NCBI GenBank assembly: GCA_963717465.1
Contig: OY970340.1
Span: forward strand, 1,344,001-1,408,000
Source of the DNA: Candidatus Bathyarchaeota archaeon
Lineage (GTDB): Archaea; Thermoproteota; Bathyarchaeia; Bathyarchaeales; Bathycorpusculaceae
Length of the DNA: 64,000 bases
Direction: 5' to 3'
Position numbers and translations under genes: made by a program. The notes below the pieces were generated by a model that searched no databases, was not told the DNA's origin, and worked only from the letters and a program-made list of their open reading frames with translations. Of this stretch, positions 43,676 to 55,125 are shown piece by piece (position 1 is the stretch's first letter; the number at the start of each line of letters is the position of its first letter).

Positions 43676-44353
43676 ATGCTTAAGTATAGCCAACTAGTTC
43701 TTGGTTCCAAAGCTTTTGTTGAGAATGAAAAACGCGATGCCATGTATAGAGTTTCGACCTATCTTATCAACGAATTCTGGGGAAAGCCGGAAGACATCGC
43801 TGATGCTTTAGGAGTCTTGCTTTTAACCTGGAACCAAGCGTTTTATAGATATGGTGGCTTTGACTCTGATGATTTAGAGAGTTGCCTCAAAAAGAATTCA
43901 GCGCTCATTCAGCAATACAGAAATCGAGATATTTTCACTTATGCTCCAAACGATGATAGCCCAATTAGCAAGCTTTTTAATGAAATGCTGATCGCCCTAA
44001 AGACTGATAGGGGAAAAAGTCCTGTGGCAGTCGCAAAAGCACTGCATCTTTTGGCTCCAAATTTCTTTCCCCTATGGGATGCTAAGATTGCAGAAAATGG
44101 ATACGATTGTTATTGGGGCGCTGGCTCTTCGGCGGCAGCACAGAAATATTTGTGCTTAATGAAGAAGACCCAGGTACAAGTAGAAGATATAGTCAAAAGT
44201 TATAGTGAGTTTGGTGTATTGCCTTTGGATGAAAAGCGAGCTACCTTAGTAGATATATGCAAAAGCTGTTCAAACAACCTACCCTTTCAAAAGTCCATCC
44301 TTAAAATAATTGATGAGCATAACTACGCTAAATACACTAAAGGGTGGATTTAA
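43676..44353 (+). CDS. Hypothetical protein with HhH/DNA-glycosylase-like motif
   Basis: LLTWN, SPVAVAKALHLLAPNFFPLWD..IA. Confidence 0.55.
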   Translation: MLKYSQLVLGSKAFVENEKRDAMYRVSTYLINEFWGKPEDIADALGVLLLTWNQAFYRYGGFDSDDLESCLKKNSALIQQYRNRDIFTYAPNDDSPISKLFNEMLIALKTDRGKSPVAVAKALHLLAPNFFPLWDAKIAENGYDCYWGAGSSAAAQKYLCLMKKTQVQVEDIVKSYSEFGVLPLDEKRATLVDICKSCSNNLPFQKSILKIIDEHNYAKYTKGWI

Positions 44354-45021: not shown

Positions 45022-46449
45022 GTGTGGTATAGAATGTACATTCGAAACTTGGAACTCAGGAACATAATGTGTTTTGAAGAGGCAGGGTTGAGTTTCACAA
45101 ACCAAAATGGCGAAATAATAAAATGGACCGTAATTCTTGGAGAAAACGGATTTGGAAAGAGCACAATTCTGAAAAATATTGCTCTGTTGCTTGCAGGACA
45201 AGATGCAGCAAGGGAATTACAGCATGAACCCCGCCGTATGGTTAGATTCGGCTGCAAAGAGGCAATTGCTGAAGCAGAAATTGACATGGGAAAAGCCTGT
45301 CCTCAACCAAGAAAAAGATTGAGGTTATCTCTTAATTACGTCGATAAACCCTACGCTGAAGGTTGGGGTGATACTCTCGCAAAGGTGGATCCTAGCAGAG
45401 CGAATTTTGAAGGTTGCCTCAAAGAATGCAGGCGAAGTTTTTTTGTTTGCGGTTATGGAGCAACACGCGTAGTACCACATGAAAAAGATACCAAACGAAT
45501 TCATGCCCTGGAACGCAGAAGCCCTTTTTTTGAAAGGCTTGAGACTCTTTTCATTGATGATTCTCCATTAATGCCTGTTGATGATTGGCTAAGAACGCTC
45601 GAATATAACACGTTAAGAACCAATAAGGCAAGTTCTGCGAAAAACCGGTTTAAAAGTGCAACAGATCTGTTATCCAAGCTTCTCCCTTCTGTGCAGTTTA
45701 AGGAAATTAACGATAACGGCGAAGCTATTTTCAATACGCCTTATGGCGAAGTTTCACTGTCCGAGCTTTCAAGAGGATATCAAGACGTGTTGTCTTGGGT
45801 GTCCGATCTTGCAAGACGTTTGATAGATGCTTTTCCTGATAGCTCTCAACCTCTTGCAGAAGAAGGAATTGTGCTTATCGAAGAAATTTCTCTGCATCTT
45901 CATCCTATTTGGCAAAGAAAAGTAATCGGCTTTTTGCGTAGTCATTTCCCAAATATTCAGTTTATTGCAACAACGCATTCTCCTCTTGTTGCTCAAGCAC
46001 TCCAACGCAACGAATTTGTTGTGTTACAATGTGGACGAAGAAACCGAAGTCATCAAGATACAATTAGAATAACAAGATTAGATCTGGAGCCGAGAGGGTT
46101 GAGTGCGGATCAAATCCTCACGAGTCCGCTCTTTGGTCTTTCATCTTCAAGGTCTGTCGGAAACGAAAGAATAGAGAGCGAGCTTTTCTCACTGAAAAAA
46201 CTTATCAGTAGCGGCGAATCGTCCGAAGACCAGAAGAAACGATATACAGAACTCCTAACGCTTTATGAGAAACAACCAGAAGCACCTGGGACGTCTTATG
46301 ATCAGTATAGACTCTTTCTTAAGCTAAACAAGACTCTTGAGTCATTGGGCAGGACAGATCTGCTTGATTTGCCTCCGTTGAAGTCTCTTGAAGAAAAAAC
46401 CAAAAAGGAAGAAGCCAAAGAAAAGGCAGAGGAAAAGAGCAAGAATTGA
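45022..46449 (+). CDS. AAA_21/ABC-type ATPase (PtuA-like)
   Basis: GENGFGKS, GYGATR, LSRGYQ, LIEEISLHLHP.WQR, QFIATTHSP. Confidence 0.88.
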   Translation: MWYRMYIRNLELRNIMCFEEAGLSFTNQNGEIIKWTVILGENGFGKSTILKNIALLLAGQDAARELQHEPRRMVRFGCKEAIAEAEIDMGKACPQPRKRLRLSLNYVDKPYAEGWGDTLAKVDPSRANFEGCLKECRRSFFVCGYGATRVVPHEKDTKRIHALERRSPFFERLETLFIDDSPLMPVDDWLRTLEYNTLRTNKASSAKNRFKSATDLLSKLLPSVQFKEINDNGEAIFNTPYGEVSLSELSRGYQDVLSWVSDLARRLIDAFPDSSQPLAEEGIVLIEEISLHLHPIWQRKVIGFLRSHFPNIQFIATTHSPLVAQALQRNEFVVLQCGRRNRSHQDTIRITRLDLEPRGLSADQILTSPLFGLSSSRSVGNERIESELFSLKKLISSGESSEDQKKRYTELLTLYEKQPEAPGTSYDQYRLFLKLNKTLESLGRTDLLDLPPLKSLEEKTKKEEAKEKAEEKSKN

Positions 46450-47189
46450 TCCGTTATAACCGAAATGGGAATGGAGCAACCCCTCCTGCCCATCTTGTTA
46501 ACTCAAAAAGGATGAGGCAAAACACTGCAAAATTGGAGAAAGAATACACTCTAGCCATAGCCGAAAGCAGGAATATGAAATTTGAGAAAGGAGTTTATGG
46601 AAGTTCTTCTGTCAAAGCTCAACTTATAATTATTAGCTATGGCAAATGTTCATATTGTGATAGTCATGTCGTAGGCGTCGCGTATGGCGATGTCGAGCAC
46701 TTTAGGCCTAAAGCTCATTATTGGTGGCTTGCATACACATGGGAAAACCTCTTGTTCTCATGCCAAATATGCAATCAAGAATATAAGAGAACGAATTTCC
46801 CAGTTGTAGGGAGTAGAGCGAACAAACCGACGGCAGATTTGACTTTGGAACAGCACTTATTGATTAATCCATTGGACGAGGATCCAGAACAACTTATTGC
46901 TTATGATTTTAAGGGAGATGAAGCAAAGATTATAGAGCAAAATTTGCAAGTGAAAGATCGGGTCGATGCATGCAAGAAGTATTTAGGACTAAATCGTGAG
47001 GATTTGCTTCATAGAAGGCGCGGAGTTCTTAGAATTTTAAAAGTATGGTATGCATTTTACCAAGATCCAAGAACCACAACCGGTATAAAGGATGAAATTC
47101 TTTCGGAGATGATTGCAATGGCAAACAATGATTCACAATACGCTGGCATGGTACGCTATTATTTAAGACATTGGGGCTTAATACCTTAG
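46446..47189 (+). CDS. HNH endonuclease (PtuB/TIGR02646-like)
   Basis: KCSYCD, VEHFRPK, YWWLAYTWENLLFSCQICN, LLINP..EDP; 4-bp overlap with the ATPase. Confidence 0.88.
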   Translation: MIRYNRNGNGATPPAHLVNSKRMRQNTAKLEKEYTLAIAESRNMKFEKGVYGSSSVKAQLIIISYGKCSYCDSHVVGVAYGDVEHFRPKAHYWWLAYTWENLLFSCQICNQEYKRTNFPVVGSRANKPTADLTLEQHLLINPLDEDPEQLIAYDFKGDEAKIIEQNLQVKDRVDACKKYLGLNREDLLHRRRGVLRILKVWYAFYQDPRTTTGIKDEILSEMIAMANNDSQYAGMVRYYLRHWGLIP

Positions 47190-47831: not shown

Positions 47832-49478
47832 GTGGAACAAAGAGAATACCAAAAAGCTTGTATCAAAGATATAGTGAATGCATTGAATGATAGTTCTGAT
47901 GCGTTAATTGCCCTTCCAACAGGCACAGGAAAGACCGTTGTTTTCAGTCCTGTAGTTGCAGAAAGCAGAGAAAACAATTCAAGGACGCTAGTTCTTGGTG
48001 CCACAAAACAAGCGCAAAGCCGAATTGAGCGTGAAATAAAGCGCTTCCTGTCTTCAGGAGATACGAAACTTGTTTTTGGTGTCGAAGAATACGATTGCCC
48101 TTTGTTAAAAAGCAAGGCTGAAAGTTGGTATTGTAGGGAAAATAAGGTTGAATGCAAAAAATTGAATATATCCTGCGCGGTCATTCAATCTGAAAAAGAT
48201 TATCATGATAAACCACTTGTGATCACTAATTTCTCCAAGTTTCTTTTAGCTCAAGGAGGTGGTAGTTATGATTTTATTGTGCTGGACGATTCACATAGCT
48301 TTGAGAATGCAAAGGAACAAGCCTACCAGCTGACTATTCAGGCTGCCGATGGCAATAGCCTATACGAAAAGGGAATAAGCAACGATAAGATCAAGGCATT
48401 TGTTGAAGATTTTTTAAATATTTTCGCACAGGCATTTGAGCGTTGCTTAAATCCGAGCGACAAGGATGGAGTTGGAGTCGTCAGTCCTGATTATATTGCA
48501 CATTTCGCATCGCTCTCAACCAAGCATGATTCAGAAAAACTAAAAAAAGAAATCGGAGGGATGCTTGCAGGCAAAGATCGCAAGGTTTGCTTGAATATGT
48601 ACTATTTCGTTATGCATTGCACTAAAGCAAGCAGATACGAGTTTTTTGTAAGAAGCGACTTCTATAATCGCGAGTGGATAGATAGCGAGCTAATTTCTAG
48701 GCAAGTCGAAGTGGATTATCTTATAAAAAGTAAGTTTGGAAATAGCGCGATCATATATGCAACTGCAACTCCAGGTGACGCATTCAAACACGCGAATTCT
48801 TGCTCGTTACGTAATTATGATGATTCAAATTTGAAAATAACACCGATAGAGAAATTCGAGCAGGTTGAGAACTGGTTTAAAAATCTAAATATCTTGGTTG
48901 TGACGGATATCGGTGATACAAGAGAAACTGGTCCGTTTGATTCAGCACTTAATCTCACGACTGAAATACTCACAAAGAGAAATGAACGCTCATTAATTTT
49001 ATTTAAAAACTATAGGGATCAAAGGAAAGCTAACGAACGCTTGAAGGGTCTTTTTTCTCCTAATCGACTATTCTTCTTAGATTCAACAATAGATAATAGC
49101 GATTTCGTTGAAAATCTAGCTAGCAAAAGTCAAATATCTCTTGCTTCAGCTTCATCCACGTTATGGGAGGGAATAAACATTCAAAGTCTAAGAATTGCTA
49201 TCATAACTACAGCACCTTTTATTCGACCTATCGCGGGCAAAAAAATGAATTATCCTGATCTTGAGCGCAGAATGCTTATACGACTACAGCAAGGTATTGG
49301 TAGAATAATAAGAAGCGAATCTGATTTTGGTGTATCGATTTTAATGGATAGTCGGTTTCAAGGGTACGTCAAGAAAAAATACTTTGACAAACGTCTTCTC
49401 AATAGGACCAAGTTTGTTACAGCTGATCAAGTTATGCCAATAATCACCGAAGTACTTGAAAAAGGAGCTAAAGAATAA
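47832..49478 (+). CDS. SF2 helicase, DinG/XPD-like, with putative Fe-S cysteines
   Basis: Q-motif REYQ, Walker A PTGTGKT, DDSH, TAT, LWEGINI, QQGIGRIIRSESDFG...MDSRF; Cys cluster YDCP..WYC..EC..SC. Confidence 0.88.
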   Translation: MEQREYQKACIKDIVNALNDSSDALIALPTGTGKTVVFSPVVAESRENNSRTLVLGATKQAQSRIEREIKRFLSSGDTKLVFGVEEYDCPLLKSKAESWYCRENKVECKKLNISCAVIQSEKDYHDKPLVITNFSKFLLAQGGGSYDFIVLDDSHSFENAKEQAYQLTIQAADGNSLYEKGISNDKIKAFVEDFLNIFAQAFERCLNPSDKDGVGVVSPDYIAHFASLSTKHDSEKLKKEIGGMLAGKDRKVCLNMYYFVMHCTKASRYEFFVRSDFYNREWIDSELISRQVEVDYLIKSKFGNSAIIYATATPGDAFKHANSCSLRNYDDSNLKITPIEKFEQVENWFKNLNILVVTDIGDTRETGPFDSALNLTTEILTKRNERSLILFKNYRDQRKANERLKGLFSPNRLFFLDSTIDNSDFVENLASKSQISLASASSTLWEGINIQSLRIAIITTAPFIRPIAGKKMNYPDLERRMLIRLQQGIGRIIRSESDFGVSILMDSRFQGYVKKKYFDKRLLNRTKFVTADQVMPIITEVLEKGAKE

Positions 49479-51757
49479 TGTATCACGCAAATGCTTTTCC
49501 CCTTCTTAAAAGTGACGGATTGCCAGTTTTTGTTTATGCAACTGCTATAGAGCCCAAACCAGTCAACAATCCACAATACTATCAAATCTTAGGAGTTATT
49601 GCAAAAAAAATTATGTTTGAACAATGTATCCCCGTAGTCTCAATCGATGGTTATATTCAAAGCCTCCCCGATCGAATAAGCAGTTCTTTAGTTTATGACG
49701 TTGATATTCCAAATATTGGGAAGTTTAAAGTTAAGTTGGCTGAGATGAGCAAATCAATTGTCGGCATTGACGATTTCGAAAACTATTCTCATCTTGTATG
49801 CCGCTTAGCTGACATAGCACTAACCGTTTATTCAGATCAATATTACAAGTTTCACCCTAAAGCGCCATTTATTATAAGAGATGAACCTTATTTTGACTTA
49901 GATCTAATAGGCAAGACGGGGATAATCGACTCCAAGAGTTACTATAGAGGTTTATTTCAAATAAGCAATAAGCCAGTTTTTGTTTTGAACAGAGAAACTC
50001 AACTTAGATCAAACAAGAACTTGCTTGTTGAAATGAAAAGTCTGGCTAAATCTTTTGAGGAGAAAAATCAAGGGAAGAACATTGACTTTTATGATCCCCC
50101 TTCAGAGTTCATGGGCTACGTTAATAATTTGATTCGAGAAAAGGCGGCTGACATAGCAAGGTCAAGTTATCCAGGTCCGAAAGTGGAAAAAATTGAAGCG
50201 GTCACTTGGAAATTTAGGGCAGGTGAAAAAACACCAGGAGCAGAAGGAACGCCAATTGATTACTTGCACAATACATATGGAATCAATGGTTTAGACCCTC
50301 GACAACCGCTTGTTGTTTACACTGTGCAAGGAAGAACACAGTATCATATTCCTGAAGTTCTCTCTTTAGGGCACACGTTTGAGGATTTAGCAAAAAGAAT
50401 TCCAGAGTGGCAAAGAAGCCAGGTCTGGGGAGATATTCATCCGGATTGCAAAAATCAACTGCACAAAATCTATGAGGTTCTTTTAGAAATCGATTCGACG
50501 CTGCGGAAGTGCCTGCCTGAAGTTTATCCCAAGTTTGTTGAAATATCAAGGGACCCATTAGACATCTCTAACGATGTCTCCGAACCTAATGAAATAGGTA
50601 TTCAGTTCGCGGATAAGGCAATAAAAATAAAGCCACCATACGATCTCAGTTTTTATCGAAACTATTCTGGAAAGAAGAATTTGTTTGCAAGAGTAATCCC
50701 TAACTCCAAGATATTGGTTTGTTCCGACAGGGTTAATTCTAAGATTAAGAAGTTCTTGGCCAAGTTAGCAGCTGAGTATAAAATAAGAAACGGTTCTGAC
50801 ATTACTTACGATTTCGGACCGCTTGATCCACTTAAGAATAAATTTGCAAATTATCAAATAGTTTTAACCATTAGTACCGAGTCGCAAGACGATGAGAAAT
50901 TATATACTTGGTATAAGAAAACCTTACAAAATGAAATGGGCATACCTCATCAGCATATTACTGTAGAAAATGCCGATGATAATTCTGTTATGCAAATAGT
51001 CATGCAAATATGTCTGAAGTTGGGTGGCGATCCTTGGCTACTGCCTGAGATGTTAAATATTGATTGCGTTTTTGGAATTAATAGTTATTTGAACCCTCAG
51101 ACAGCAAGAGCAGAGATTTCAATGCTCTTAACTGATGCCGCGGGAAAACTAATAACTCAATTAGACCCTATCGATTGTTCAAACGCAGATAGAATCATTG
51201 AAACTATTAAAGAATTGGCTGGCAAATATCGAAGAGTTCTTTTTCTAACAACGTTTGATAGGTCAGGTTTAATTGATAAGATAAAAACATCGTTAGATAT
51301 TTTGGCAAGCGAGTATTGTATTGTCACAGTTATTGATAACAACTATTTTCGATTTTTCGAAACATATTCCCCTCGACATGCGCCGAGATTTGGCAAGACA
51401 GTTTTGGAAGTAGCTAAATGCTCTATCGAAGCTATTGAAAATGCACCTCAAGGTCACATCTTTAAGTGCCAACCAGACATCTACTACTTGCTTACCGGAA
51501 AGACAATTGAAAAAGGTCTGTCTAAACGAGGGTGCCCTTTACCGATAAAAATCGAAATAAAATGTGTAAAAGGACAAAATTGGGACAAAATGGAACTTGC
51601 CAAATATATTATGGCGTTGTGCATGATGGGAAGAGCAAGTGGCCATATGACAAGGTTTCCGATGCCCCTCTATTATCTTCAGCTTAGCGAATACTACTAC
51701 AACAGGTTCGGAGTCCCTAAGGATGCAAAACTCAAGAAATCAATTTTCTACATCTAG
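49478..51757 (+). CDS. Long (N-L1-PAZ-L2-MID-PIWI) Argonaute, predicted slicer-inactive
   Basis: PAZ: DYLHNTYGI..LDPRQPLV..YHIPEVL; MID: Y...K..IPHQ...QICLKLGG.PW; PIWI: VFGINSY, GCPLPIKI, LAKYIMAL, TRFPMPLYY, C-terminal IFYI. Confidence 0.88.
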   Translation: MYHANAFPLLKSDGLPVFVYATAIEPKPVNNPQYYQILGVIAKKIMFEQCIPVVSIDGYIQSLPDRISSSLVYDVDIPNIGKFKVKLAEMSKSIVGIDDFENYSHLVCRLADIALTVYSDQYYKFHPKAPFIIRDEPYFDLDLIGKTGIIDSKSYYRGLFQISNKPVFVLNRETQLRSNKNLLVEMKSLAKSFEEKNQGKNIDFYDPPSEFMGYVNNLIREKAADIARSSYPGPKVEKIEAVTWKFRAGEKTPGAEGTPIDYLHNTYGINGLDPRQPLVVYTVQGRTQYHIPEVLSLGHTFEDLAKRIPEWQRSQVWGDIHPDCKNQLHKIYEVLLEIDSTLRKCLPEVYPKFVEISRDPLDISNDVSEPNEIGIQFADKAIKIKPPYDLSFYRNYSGKKNLFARVIPNSKILVCSDRVNSKIKKFLAKLAAEYKIRNGSDITYDFGPLDPLKNKFANYQIVLTISTESQDDEKLYTWYKKTLQNEMGIPHQHITVENADDNSVMQIVMQICLKLGGDPWLLPEMLNIDCVFGINSYLNPQTARAEISMLLTDAAGKLITQLDPIDCSNADRIIETIKELAGKYRRVLFLTTFDRSGLIDKIKTSLDILASEYCIVTVIDNNYFRFFETYSPRHAPRFGKTVLEVAKCSIEAIENAPQGHIFKCQPDIYYLLTGKTIEKGLSKRGCPLPIKIEIKCVKGQNWDKMELAKYIMALCMMGRASGHMTRFPMPLYYLQLSEYYYNRFGVPKDAKLKKSIFYI

Positions 51758-53313: not shown

Positions 53314-54387
53314 TCATTTTAATAGCTTCCGTTTCTCAAAATCCTTGGTTCCTTCGTAGCATGCTTTTCTCTTTATATAGTGGTCTACTGAACAGTTGGA
53401 ATAACTGACACAAGCGTCAATATTTTCCATTAGTGGTGTTATCTTTAAAATCTTATTTTTAATATAGTTGTTAAGATCAGTCTTGCTAGCATTGGGCAAA
53501 TAATTGATGAAATCGCGGAAAGCCCAATAATAACGTATAAAATTTATTTCATCCAATGCGAGGTTTTCTATATCGCGTTCATGCCATTTGAGGATGTGTG
53601 GCTCAATTGTTTTGTTTTTTACTTCCTTCTTGACTGCCCTGATAAGTTCGCGAACGTGTCTTTGCAGTGTGCTCATGTGCATGACTTTGACTCCCGTGAA
53701 AAGGCTGATATTCTTCTTTATTTTTTTCTTGAATTCTGGGACAAGTAGGATTAACTGATCTTGTAGGAAATATGAAAGCAGAGGTAAGAATACATTATCC
53801 CTTGTCTCTCCGAATAGATTAGATTGGGCATTATAATATCCCGCCTTATCATGCAAGGTTACACTACTATCCTGAACCATCGAAAGTGGATGAACAACGG
53901 TGTCTGAATTCAATTTGACTATAGTTGGGAAATCATCGTAATAATTTCCGCTTAATAAAATGGGACAGTTCTCTTTGTAGTGCCCGAGCAGTAAAACGCC
54001 AAGTTTATTGTTTTTTTGCACTTGTTCATACAAACCTGCAAGAAAATACGTATTGAGCTTCTCAAAAGGATAATCAAATCCACCTTTGAATGACAAAACG
54101 AGTGAGCACTCCGAGTTTTTTTTCTCGTGCTCGATTTTTGCTTTAAACATGTCGACATAGTCTTCGCCAGCTTCACTTAAAATTTTAACAATATCGAGTC
54201 CATTGAGTTCTTGAGGCAAGTGAATTACGGTCTCTACTAAAGAAGATGTATCCTCTTTAAAACTGGTTCTAACAGTGAAAGCTTTCTCAACCTCTAGAAT
54301 GTATTCGTCATCAGTGATTTTTTTCCATCCAAATCTATCCGTAAACTCACGGATCATTTTGTCCAAATTATTAATCATATTAATCAC
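53314..54387 (-). CDS. Hypothetical protein (island cargo)
   Basis: 357-aa open frame, no motif recognised. Confidence 0.6.
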   Translation of the reverse strand: MINMINNLDKMIREFTDRFGWKKITDDEYILEVEKAFTVRTSFKEDTSSLVETVIHLPQELNGLDIVKILSEAGEDYVDMFKAKIEHEKKNSECSLVLSFKGGFDYPFEKLNTYFLAGLYEQVQKNNKLGVLLLGHYKENCPILLSGNYYDDFPTIVKLNSDTVVHPLSMVQDSSVTLHDKAGYYNAQSNLFGETRDNVFLPLLSYFLQDQLILLVPEFKKKIKKNISLFTGVKVMHMSTLQRHVRELIRAVKKEVKNKTIEPHILKWHERDIENLALDEINFIRYYWAFRDFINYLPNASKTDLNNYIKNKILKITPLMENIDACVSYSNCSVDHYIKRKACYEGTKDFEKRKLLK

Positions 54388-54799
54388 AAATTAAACATAA
54401 TTTGCGCTCCAATATTTAATAATTTCGTAAGGCAATAATCAAATTGAATGCTAGACAATACGTATGAAAAATGGCTTAAAAGAGTATCGCGTCAGCCCAT
54501 GCGCGATGCAACTGGCGCAGCACCTACTGAAAGCCAATTCACCGGGATTTCTCCGATTTTCGCCACGTTCGTCCTGCTGGGATGCTCACCAGCGATACGA
54601 TCGTCCGTGCCGAAATCCGTTCGGCATATCCATTTTTTCTTTCGCCTGTAGGACTTGCAGGACAAGGTTTTGGTTAATGTTTTCCTTCCGACCCTTTCTG
54701 AAACAAAGGTCAAAAAGTGTGCCTCGCAGGTCTCACAAATGAACGACTTTTGCAGCCGTGTTGGCCTCGGCTACGTAAGTTGTCAGCTGGTACCGCTTG

Positions 54800-55125
54800 G
54801 TCAATTGCTAGGGGCTTTGTGCAGGAGAGGCTTTCGCTACCGGATCCATTATGACGGAGACAGGACTGACATAGCCTTCCCAAGCAAAAAGGTGGCAGTA
54901 TTCATAGATGGCTGCTTTTGGCATGAGTGCCCCATTCACTCCCATCAACCAAAGTCAAACCGAGCTTATTGGCTGCCAAAATTGAAAAAGAATATTCAAG
55001 AGACACTCCAACAAATGAGCGATTAAACGCTGAAGGGAGAGTAGTTTGCGATTTTGGGAGCATGAGATAGATGATATAGATTGCATTGTTAACAGAATTG
55101 CGGCTGCACTAAATTCAAATTGAAT
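54800..55125 (+). pseudogene. vsr: Vsr very-short-patch repair endonuclease remnant
   Basis: GFRYR, DIAFP.KKVAVFIDGCFWH.CP, PKSN..YW.PK; RFWEHE in a shifted frame; N-terminus missing. Confidence 0.8.

Follow-up and report, generated by a model that had tools for sequence, protein, structure and literature searches.

A stretch of 64,000 nucleotides of a Candidatus Bathyarchaeota genome (assembly GCA_963717465.1, contig OY970340.1, positions 1,344,001 to 1,408,000; the whole stretch is called the window below) encodes a divergent, full-length Argonaute between two helicase genes, the first of which resembles XPD. The protein belongs to a rare archaeal family, here family A, which together with two metagenomic families, B and C (about 70 proteins in all), groups with the eukaryotic PIWI clade to the exclusion of the sampled prokaryotic Argonautes (pAgos). 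The explanation that we favor, with a probability of roughly 60%, is that the window Argonaute is a catalytically dead member of this PIWI-like, helicase-associated group and would act through the helicases as effectors. We read the locus as a variant Argonaute defense system that bears on the ancestry of eukaryotic PIWI. A first-pass annotation of the window had described an inactive, mobile, PIWI-related Argonaute in a probable non-Asgard archaeon from motifs read by eye; that interpretation is partly supported, with its main thrust upheld, and the fate of each of these claims is given with the evidence that bears on it.

Sequence affinity to the PIWI clade

The 759-aa translation of 49478-51757 (+) contains every segment that had been quoted as PIWI-like: KIEAVTW, TPIDYLHNTYGI, LDPRQPLVV, YHIPEVLSLG, LFQISNKPVFVLNRETQLRSNKNLL and the C-terminus SIFYI. 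The protein is very divergent, as judged from a sub-threshold Pfam Piwi match (25 bits at residues 462-537, with a cut-off of 28.9), a score of 87.8 bits with the generic pAgo model of PADLOC, and a single-sequence phmmer search of the PDB in which it matched no Argonaute among the solved structures. Piwi was the only Pfam family found on it at E<=0.01, with no pPIWI_RE family, and Pfam Piwi_N matched neither the window protein nor P0057 nor P0067, the representatives of families A, B and C. A PADLOC “PprPIWI” match of 76.5 bits was set aside as unspecific, a long-A fragment (P0129) scoring 367 bits.

A profile built from 33 family-A members was considerably more informative. Searched against all solved chains, it gave 12 matches at E<0.01, all from the PIWI clade, of which 10 were full-length and two were PAZ-only chains of PIWIL2. 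E-values were 5.5e-10 for MILI/HILI (Piwi-like protein 2), 1e-8 for Ephydatia PiwiA, 1.4e-6 for MIWI and 3.4e-4 for Drosophila Piwi, and the isolated PIWIL2 PAZ chains were matched at E 0.0018-0.002, with residues 209-281 aligned to the PAZ of Piwi-like protein 2 (RIDDVDW...FLEYYSKNYGI...QPLL). The next solved matches were an unnamed “Protein argonaute” (9iad, E 0.02) and an AGO1 MID domain (E 0.077); up to E 10 there was no other prokaryotic Argonaute (TtAgo, CbAgo, RsAgo), no full-length AGO-clade protein (hAgo2) and no HrAgo1 (8r3z). Judged by these alignments, the resemblance to the PIWI PAZ exceeds chance. The PIWI-like PAZ and L1 motifs of the first-pass annotation hold up in that the family profile aligns with the PIWIL2 PAZ, but the individual motifs are not diagnostic: QPLV, PE(L/V)L and the L1 strand pattern are shared, more loosely, with long-A pAgos (Nostoc, Pontibacillus, Natrinema and TtAgo). 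The C-terminus SIFYI is no specific sign of PIWI either, for a hydrophobic-F/Y-[ILV] end is general to Argonautes (LFFV in TtAgo, LYFL in P0129).

Against 1.84 billion representative sequences, the same profile gave 98 matches at E<=0.001, led by family A and its fragments, followed by P0057 (1.4e-28), P0065 and P0067 (2.3e-12), and then by PIWI-clade-type proteins. Remote matches were labelled by Pfam, PADLOC and likeness to PDB chains; among the 59 that were scanned, 14 carry Pfam Piwi_N and none carries ArgoL2 or ArgoMid. Profile-profile alignment with hhalign scored family A at 306 with family B, 258 with family C and 214 with a eukaryotic PIWI profile of 20 sequences, the last over the full length (residues 5-761 against 125-871); the best pAgo set reached 110, over MID-PIWI only, and TtAgo 42. 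Families B and C followed the same order more strongly, with scores of 363 and 466 against PIWI and of 132 and 160 against the best pAgo set.

The predicted structure is that of a complete long Argonaute. An AlphaFold model built with 33 homologues (predicted local distance difference test, pLDDT, 87.9; predicted template modeling score, pTM, 0.85) has the fold N-L1-PAZ-L2-MID-PIWI, which VIA-align also recovers. The first 20 Foldseek matches were human AGO1/AGO2, MILI, HILI, Siwi and HrAgo1, and the first bacterial pAgo, CpAgo, stood at rank 21. With most of the listed PIWI, AGO and HrAgo1 structures VIA-align gave Z-scores of 29.4-31.0, spanning model residues 1-759 with 599-685 of them aligned. 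The PAZ domain is complete, unlike the reduced PAZ of long-B pAgos, and one family-A member (P0028) has a precomputed Pfam PAZ match.

Phylogenetic placement

A maximum-likelihood (ML) tree of the MID-PIWI region (414 columns, 79 rows) was built under LG+C20+F+G4 by posterior mean site frequency (PMSF) with 1000 ultrafast bootstraps; support is given as ultrafast bootstrap over Shimodaira-Hasegawa-like approximate likelihood ratio (UFBoot/SH-aLRT), and the trees are unrooted. The tree separates 13 sequences of family A, three of B, seven of C and 22 of PIWI type from 34 pAgos with support of 99/94, the pAgo side consisting of TtAgo, Natrinema, Nostoc, Pontibacillus, 11 Thermoproteota pAgos, a long-B-like gut cluster and short pAgos. 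Family A forms the sister group of ((B,C),PIWI) with 96/85, with (B,C) at 99/96 and PIWI at 100/100, and so lies outside the PIWI clade as a relative rather than a member. A 45-row set under LG+G4 returned the identical topology (98/94 and 97/93), and family A still joined the PIWI rows when B and C were left out (93/85).

Approximately unbiased (AU) tests were run with LG+G4 on the 45-row set, in which long-A-like sampling is small (11 rows). Placing family A with the long-B/short set was rejected (difference in log-likelihood, delta lnL, 26.4; p 0.0096), as was placing it with the long-A-like set (delta lnL 26.7, p 0.0078); a single clade of A, B and C was not rejected (delta lnL 6.0, p 0.056). 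The family is thus not a long-B pAgo by placement or by its PAZ, which aligns with that of PIWIL proteins, nor a long-A pAgo by placement, and the position deep within ordinary long-A or long-B pAgos that would have argued against the first-pass proposal was not found.

Two related metagenomic families

Family B, defined by P0057, comprises 6 proteins, and family C, defined by P0067, comprises 31. On its own, P0057 matched Siwi at 6e-20, HrAgo1 at 3.7e-12 and AGO2 at 1e-4 among solved chains, and P0067 matched Ephydatia Piwi at 4.6e-28, CbAgo at 2.3e-5 and AGO2 at 1.7e-4. A joint B+C profile ranked PIWI (4e-59 to 2e-45; 204 bits) above HrAgo1 (3e-36; 128 bits), AGO (2e-24 to 1e-11) and pAgos (EcAgo, 9e-10). 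In these profile searches PIWI outranks AGO, family A matching no full-length AGO and B+C giving 4e-59 against 2e-24, an order that is partly expected, PIWI being the more pAgo-like of the two clades. Specific affinity to HrAgo1 was not seen, since family A does not match it and P0057 ranks it below Siwi.

These families share more than an Argonaute. A helicase-size ORF (open reading frame) follows the Argonaute gene in 9/9 family-C loci and in both complete family-B loci; its identity was checked by Pfam or BLAST in L025, L026, L034, L039 and L040, with Pfam confirmation in L026, L034 and L039. The XPD-like helicase of the window, hel1, is a full-length orthologue of these helicases (23.5-29.2% identity, E 1e-34 to 3e-47). 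The B and C loci have restriction-modification, SMC-like ATPase and SIR2-TPR genes among their neighbors. Orc1/Cdc6-type genes lie near the Argonaute in three of the nine family-C loci (L026, with two copies, L027 and L030), which points to archaeal hosts; the nearest protein-language-model atlas clusters of one such gene are from DPANN and Methanobacteriota, a lead only. On plasmids P0067 found one weak halobacterial pAgo match, and in phages none.

A third gene of 275-291 aa follows the Argonaute and helicase genes in 9/9 family-C loci (e.g. L026:12312-13139, L034:12345-13175, L031:12290-13141); it belongs to no Pfam family, and its copies are 46-59% identical to one another. Just upstream of one family-C Argonaute, and beside a type I restriction-modification system, L034:6912-7790 (+) encodes a DCD-domain (Development-and-Cell-Death) protein (Pfam, 109.4 bits). 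The other metagenome loci that were checked proved to be family B, family C or PIWI-like pieces. One 798-aa open frame on a 2.5-kb metagenome contig (L044:3-2396, +) is a PIWI-clade protein (MIWI 4.1e-88, HrAgo1 1.3e-37, AGO 1.7e-28) and served to calibrate genuine PIWI scores. A DNA pattern scan also found 38 gut and rumen metagenome loci (L046-L088) with a tight cluster of long-B-like Argonautes, with open frames of 749-799 aa in complete loci, whose nearest solved relatives are AfAgo (1.1e-14) and RsAgo (1.7e-7).

Loss of slicer residues and retention of the guide pocket

Columns of the catalytic tetrad were set by the TtAgo residues, which we take to be D478, E512, D546 and D660, and residues were confirmed in locus L019. 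Throughout the 17 aligned family-A rows the DEDX tetrad of slicing Argonautes is absent: at position 1 the residue is N, H, Y or K, never Asp, and at position 4 it is Q, R, K or G, never Asp or His (N535 and Q735 in the window Argonaute). With two of four catalytic positions lost family-wide, the window Argonaute is predicted to be catalytically inactive, as the first-pass annotation had held. The 5'-phosphate pocket of the MID domain, of what we presume to be the Y-K-Q-K type, is kept, with K480 and Q492 invariant, K514 near-invariant and the aligned Tyr present; guide binding is therefore likely retained, and the guide would be 5'-phosphorylated.

Family C differs in this respect. Its rows have Asp rather than His at position 4, as in pAgos, in 7/10 cases, and Asp at positions 1, 3 and 4 in 6/10, with the helicase still present. 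Proteins for experiment are thus at hand, family C with a D-D-D active site and family A as a natural dead variant. The remaining subgroup of family C (P0067, P0137 and P0138; 3/10 rows) has Glu, Glu and His at positions 1, 3 and 4 where its relatives have Asp, Asp and Asp, and could have an alternative acidic active site or be inactive.

The helicase cassette

The Argonaute gene overlaps a helicase gene at either end (Table 1). Pfam assigned Helicase_C_2 (59.3 bits), ResIII (48.1) and DEAD (30.5) to hel1, and its best PADLOC match was typeIV_DinG (95.8 bits); the best solved match of the helicase-family profile was the archaeal XPD Ta0057 (E 1.1e-24), followed by DinG, CHL1 and FANCJ. The SF2 (superfamily 2) motifs, the Helicase_C_2 domain and a four-cysteine module between Walker A and the DEAH box place hel1 in the XPD/DinG family, and by analogy with XPD the four cysteines are likely to form the iron-sulfur (Fe-S) domain of XPD-type helicases. 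The second helicase, hel2, matched Helicase_C_2 (30.9 bits), Helicase_C (30.1 bits) and PADLOC typeIV_DinG (44.4 bits), shares only the C-terminal RecA2 region with hel1, and has a visible Walker A GKT and DEAH box; its profile matched DEAD-box and XPD RecA2 domains weakly (E 5e-7 to 2e-4). Pfam and profile searches recognized no nuclease domain in either helicase, and Pfam and PADLOC scans found no nuclease, RNase III or restriction endonuclease (REase) in the family-A cassette.

Table 1. Coordinates of the Argonaute cassette and the adjacent defense system within the window.
Feature	Position	Strand	Basis or remark
Argonaute	49478..51757	+	One ORF at exactly these positions, 759 aa; full-length N-L1-PAZ-L2-MID-PIWI
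PAZ core (residues 209-281)	50102..50320	+	Family-A profile alignment to Piwi-like protein 1 and 2 PAZ
MID-PIWI lobe (residues 365-759)	50570..51754	+	AfAgo MID-PIWI alignment, Z 31.0, root-mean-square deviation 3.0
hel1, XPD/DinG-family SF2 helicase, 548 aa	47832..49478	+	Stop overlaps the Argonaute start codon
hel1 four-Cys cluster (C89, C101, C108, C115)	48096..48176	+	Invariant in 10/10 aligned A/B/C helicases
hel2, compact divergent SF2 helicase, 457 aa	51723..53096	+	Overlaps the Argonaute 3' end by 35 nt; family-A-specific
Septu system	45022-47189	+	PtuA 475 aa, PADLOC 295.6 bits; PtuB (HNH) 247 aa, 179.8 bits; genes overlap

This arrangement is conserved in family A, where hel2 lies 3' of the Argonaute in all five loci with downstream sequence (the window, L002, L003, L004 and L089) and hel1 lies 5' of it in all four with upstream sequence, L002 starting at the Argonaute. 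Between the window and a congeneric genome only the three cassette genes match (47.8-53.1 kb, 64.6% nucleotide identity) and the flanks are unrelated, which indicates that the cassette relocates as a unit. The mobility supposed by the first-pass annotation draws on a patchy distribution and on the different context in the congener, not on mobility genes; no integrase or transposase was found beside the cassette in the window. A complex prediction of the Argonaute MID-PIWI lobe with hel1 scored 0.37 against 0.00 for the best control, with contacts agreeing between runs to at least 59% and a partner pLDDT of at least 82. The mark for such predictions is reached by 116 of 157 solved complexes and also by 2 of the 215 mismatched pairs; at 0.60 or below lie only 18 of the 157 solved complexes, together with both passing mismatches. 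The modeled pair thus lends weak support to a physical contact between the two proteins.

Under the explanation that we favor, family A would have branched off, evolving fast, from a prokaryotic group of PIWI-like Argonautes to which the metagenomic families B and C also belong. Among the families compared, this group would stand closer to the eukaryotic PIWI clade than any other prokaryotic Argonautes, and in all three of its families an orthologous XPD-like helicase with four cysteines is encoded alongside the Argonaute. Family A would have lost its slicer residues and gained a second helicase, the three overlapping genes moving as one cassette. The Argonaute, loaded with a 5'-phosphorylated guide, would recognize complementary nucleic acid of an invader without cutting it, and would recruit or license on the target the helicases, of which the XPD-like one is presumably coupled to it in translation. 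These may then unwind or strip the target, so that its replication is blocked or it is exposed to other nucleases, in a manner analogous to DdmDE and to type IV-A CRISPR with CasDinG.

Host and distribution

A word-indexed search retrieved 35 family-A proteins at E<=0.001 among 7821 candidates; those other than the window's are 39-76% identical to the window protein, and the full-length ones measure 733-770 aa. Four carry an organism name, three of them Bathyarchaeota/Bathyarchaeia and one Thaumarchaeota, and three family-A loci in species-representative genomes bear the same labels. Family A is a rare archaeal family of Bathyarchaeia and Nitrososphaeria. Among the 401 genomes of the phylum that were sampled, two have it, the window's own included, as does one of 10 further genomes of the genus; a Pfam Piwi match of any kind at E<=1e-5 occurs in 11 of those 401. 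The window's genome, a 3.05-Mb contig, has one Piwi-domain gene. Because a genome of the same genus (G318) encodes a family-A protein (P0009) whose source label is Candidatus Bathyarchaeota, the host is assigned to Bathyarchaeia and not to Asgard archaea, in keeping with the earlier supposition.

Viral contigs held no family-A relative and plasmids no match to the window Argonaute; two long-B-like queries failed to retrieve RsAgo from plasmids. One Thermoproteota genome (G211) has two very divergent long Piwi-domain proteins, P0083 (873 aa) and L015 (an open frame of ~822 aa), which pair at 95/93 and matched no solved structure at E<=0.001.

Alternative explanations

A number of observations weigh against a PIWI-related origin or against the mechanism built on it. 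The first-pass annotation had called for a MID-PIWI ML tree with PIWI, AGO-clade, Asgard, long-A and long-B as well as short Argonautes; PIWI, long-A and long-B as well as short pAgos are represented, but the AGO clade and Asgard HrAgo1 are absent from every tree, so that a sister of PIWI and a sister of all eukaryotic Argonautes are not distinguished. The sample of 34 pAgos is small and partly picked from query-profile matches, and long-A lineages reported as nearest to eukaryotic Argonautes may be missing from it. The groups for the AU tests were defined once the tree was already known, and the “eukaryotic PIWI” rows are labelled by their Pfam Piwi_N/PAZ/Piwi content and their likeness to solved PIWIs. 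Structural Z-scores lie within about 1 unit and do not separate PIWI, AGO, HrAgo1 and AfAgo; the fold therefore assigns no clade. The guide-directed helicase mechanism, for its part, is argued by analogy for a cassette that is without a nuclease.

One alternative is an ordinary, fast-evolving, inactive pAgo derived from the long-A or long-B type; long branches, features kept from a common ancestor and sparse sampling would then have produced an artefactual tie to PIWI. The branch of family A is long (1.6 changes per site) and so are those of the PIWIs, which makes long-branch attraction possible; the window protein has a low Pfam Piwi score, its single sequence matches no Argonaute in the PDB, and inactivity and linkage to partner genes are traits that it has in common with long-B pAgos. 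Matches to the family-A profile also include short and long-B-like pAgos (E 1e-7 to 1e-3), and the nearest clusters of the window protein in the protein-language-model atlas are prokaryotic Argonautes (0.96), a eukaryotic nematode cluster following at rank 28 (0.92). A structural survey (PMC12477606) states, in its available text, that PIWI is generally closer to pAgos in features than AGO is; that PIWI outscores AGO here is therefore partly expected, but the survey, as far as that text goes, leaves unexplained why PIWI outscores every solved pAgo. We consider this origin unlikely. It has to contend with the 99/94 split from 34 pAgos under a mixture model, with the AU rejection of both pAgo placements, and with an alignment of family A to PIWI that is full-length and includes N-L1-PAZ (214), pAgo matches being mostly confined to MID-PIWI and scoring at most 110. 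Families B and C moreover bridge A to PIWI, with E-values down to 4e-59, and the PAZ is complete rather than reduced as in long-B. The relationship to PIWI claimed by the first-pass annotation is supported by the profile searches, the profile-profile scores, the trees and the AU tests, which place family A beside the eukaryotic PIWI clade instead of any long-A, long-B or short pAgo sampled; it is qualified by the atlas, by the motifs shared in part with long-A pAgos and by the sampling of the trees.

It is also conceivable that archaea captured a eukaryotic PIWI gene by horizontal transfer and then wired it to a helicase, in which case the three families would be uninformative on the origin of PIWI. 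In its favor are the rarity and scattered distribution of the families, the position of (B,C) as sister group of the PIWI rows, and the single clade of A, B and C that the AU test did not reject and that would leave the direction of transfer open. This history seems to us very unlikely, because the prokaryotic families are paraphyletic to PIWI in the ML trees (96/85, 97/93), family C mostly has the pAgo-like Asp rather than His at tetrad position 4, none of the representatives matches Pfam Piwi_N, and a prokaryote-type operon with an orthologous XPD-like helicase is common to all three; with unrooted trees that lack the AGO clade, it is weakened only. A further alternative accepts the same identity for the Argonaute but sets the helicases upstream of it, as factors that make or load guides, with the dead Argonaute silencing by binding alone. 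RNase III and helicase genes flanking HrAgo1 have been proposed as guide-generating factors in the available text of PMC11217426, and a helicase that accompanies the Asp triad of family C is not merely a substitute for slicing. This division of labor strikes us as somewhat unlikely, as the family-A cassette has no nuclease or RNase III with which to cut guides, and in family A slicing was lost and a second helicase gained together, in line with an effector function.

If the placement of families A, B and C beside PIWI is true in a full tree, candidate ancestors of the RNA-silencing Argonautes extend beyond Asgard archaea. A bolder possibility, on balance doubtful, is that the three families are branches that have survived from a non-Asgard archaeal module of Argonaute plus XPD helicase, ancestral to the PIWI lineage or to all eukaryotic Argonautes. 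PIWI-type Argonautes would then already have been diversified and coupled to helicases in archaea (Bathyarchaeia, Nitrososphaeria and the hosts of B and C), HrAgo1 would represent one such lineage among several, and the reliance of eukaryotic small-RNA pathways on helicases would be prefigured in prokaryotes.

Genomic surroundings

A complete Septu system lies directly upstream of the Argonaute cassette, and together they form a small defense island. Downstream, a 123-aa ORF at 54655-55026 (+) has a partial match to the Vsr mismatch endonuclease (37.3 bits, profile positions 30-69 of 74) and may be the remnant of a methylase-associated repair gene. The ORFs flanking the island, at 43676-44353 (+, 225 aa) and 53314-54387 (-, 357 aa), belong to no Pfam or PADLOC family, and the latter is not kept beside the cassette in the congeneric genome. 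Nothing was seen by eye in the 640-nt AT-rich spacer upstream of hel1, and Rfam and tRNA scans of the window gave no match.

Comparison with known systems

Several known systems resemble the cassette in part. The pPIWI-RE islands, which consist of an REase, a DinG-type helicase and a PIWI-RE protein, likewise co-encode a PIWI-domain protein with a DinG-family helicase, but the cassette has neither a pPIWI_RE Pfam module (E<=0.01) nor an REase gene, and its Argonaute is a canonical 759-aa long protein with a PAZ. Long-B pAgo systems (e.g. RsAgo, long-B pAgo-nuclease) also place an inactive long Argonaute with partners in a defense island; they differ from the present locus in the completeness of its PAZ, in its phylogenetic placement (AU p 0.0096) and in partners that are helicases rather than nuclease, SIR2 or membrane effectors. 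DdmDE pairs an inactive pAgo, DdmE, with a helicase-nuclease, DdmD, and is similar in joining a non-cutting Argonaute to an SF2 helicase as presumed effector. No DdmE or DdmD model is among the PADLOC matches listed and no DdmE chain among the structural and profile matches listed, a direct test of remote homology not being part of these searches, and hel1 and hel2 are without a recognizable nuclease domain. In type IV-A CRISPR-Cas a nuclease-free guide complex works with a DinG/XPD-family helicase, CasDinG (Csf4), the family to which the best PADLOC match of hel1 belongs; here the guide carrier would be an Argonaute instead of a Cas effector complex, and the window contains no CRISPR array.

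Another comparison is with HrAgo1 of the Asgard Lokiarchaeia (PDB 8r3z), a prokaryotic Argonaute with affinity to eukaryotic Argonautes and a flanking helicase gene (PMC11217426), which structurally matches the window Argonaute at Z 29.8 over residues 1-759. [quoted passage not shown] By comparison, the window Argonaute is predicted to be dead, its host is a member of Bathyarchaeia, and its family profile does not match HrAgo1 at E<=10. Full-text literature searches turned up no Bathyarchaeial or other non-Asgard PIWI-like Argonaute and no Argonaute-XPD helicase module, although the supplementary trees of PMC11217426, PMC13477220, PMC12477606 and PMC12988326 may contain members that pass without comment; the combination of an Argonaute with an XPD-like, predicted Fe-S helicase is in this sense a defense architecture for which no description was found. 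From the eukaryotic PIWI clade itself (MILI/HILI, MIWI, Siwi, Drosophila Piwi, Ephydatia PiwiA), the window Argonaute is set apart by its archaeal operon with XPD-like and SF2 helicases, the lack of a Piwi_N match, the lost slicer residues and an identity of about 12-15% in structural alignments. With that clade it nevertheless shares the full N-L1-PAZ-L2-MID-PIWI fold, the best profile matches over PAZ and MID-PIWI, a full-length profile-profile alignment and the nearest position in the ML trees.

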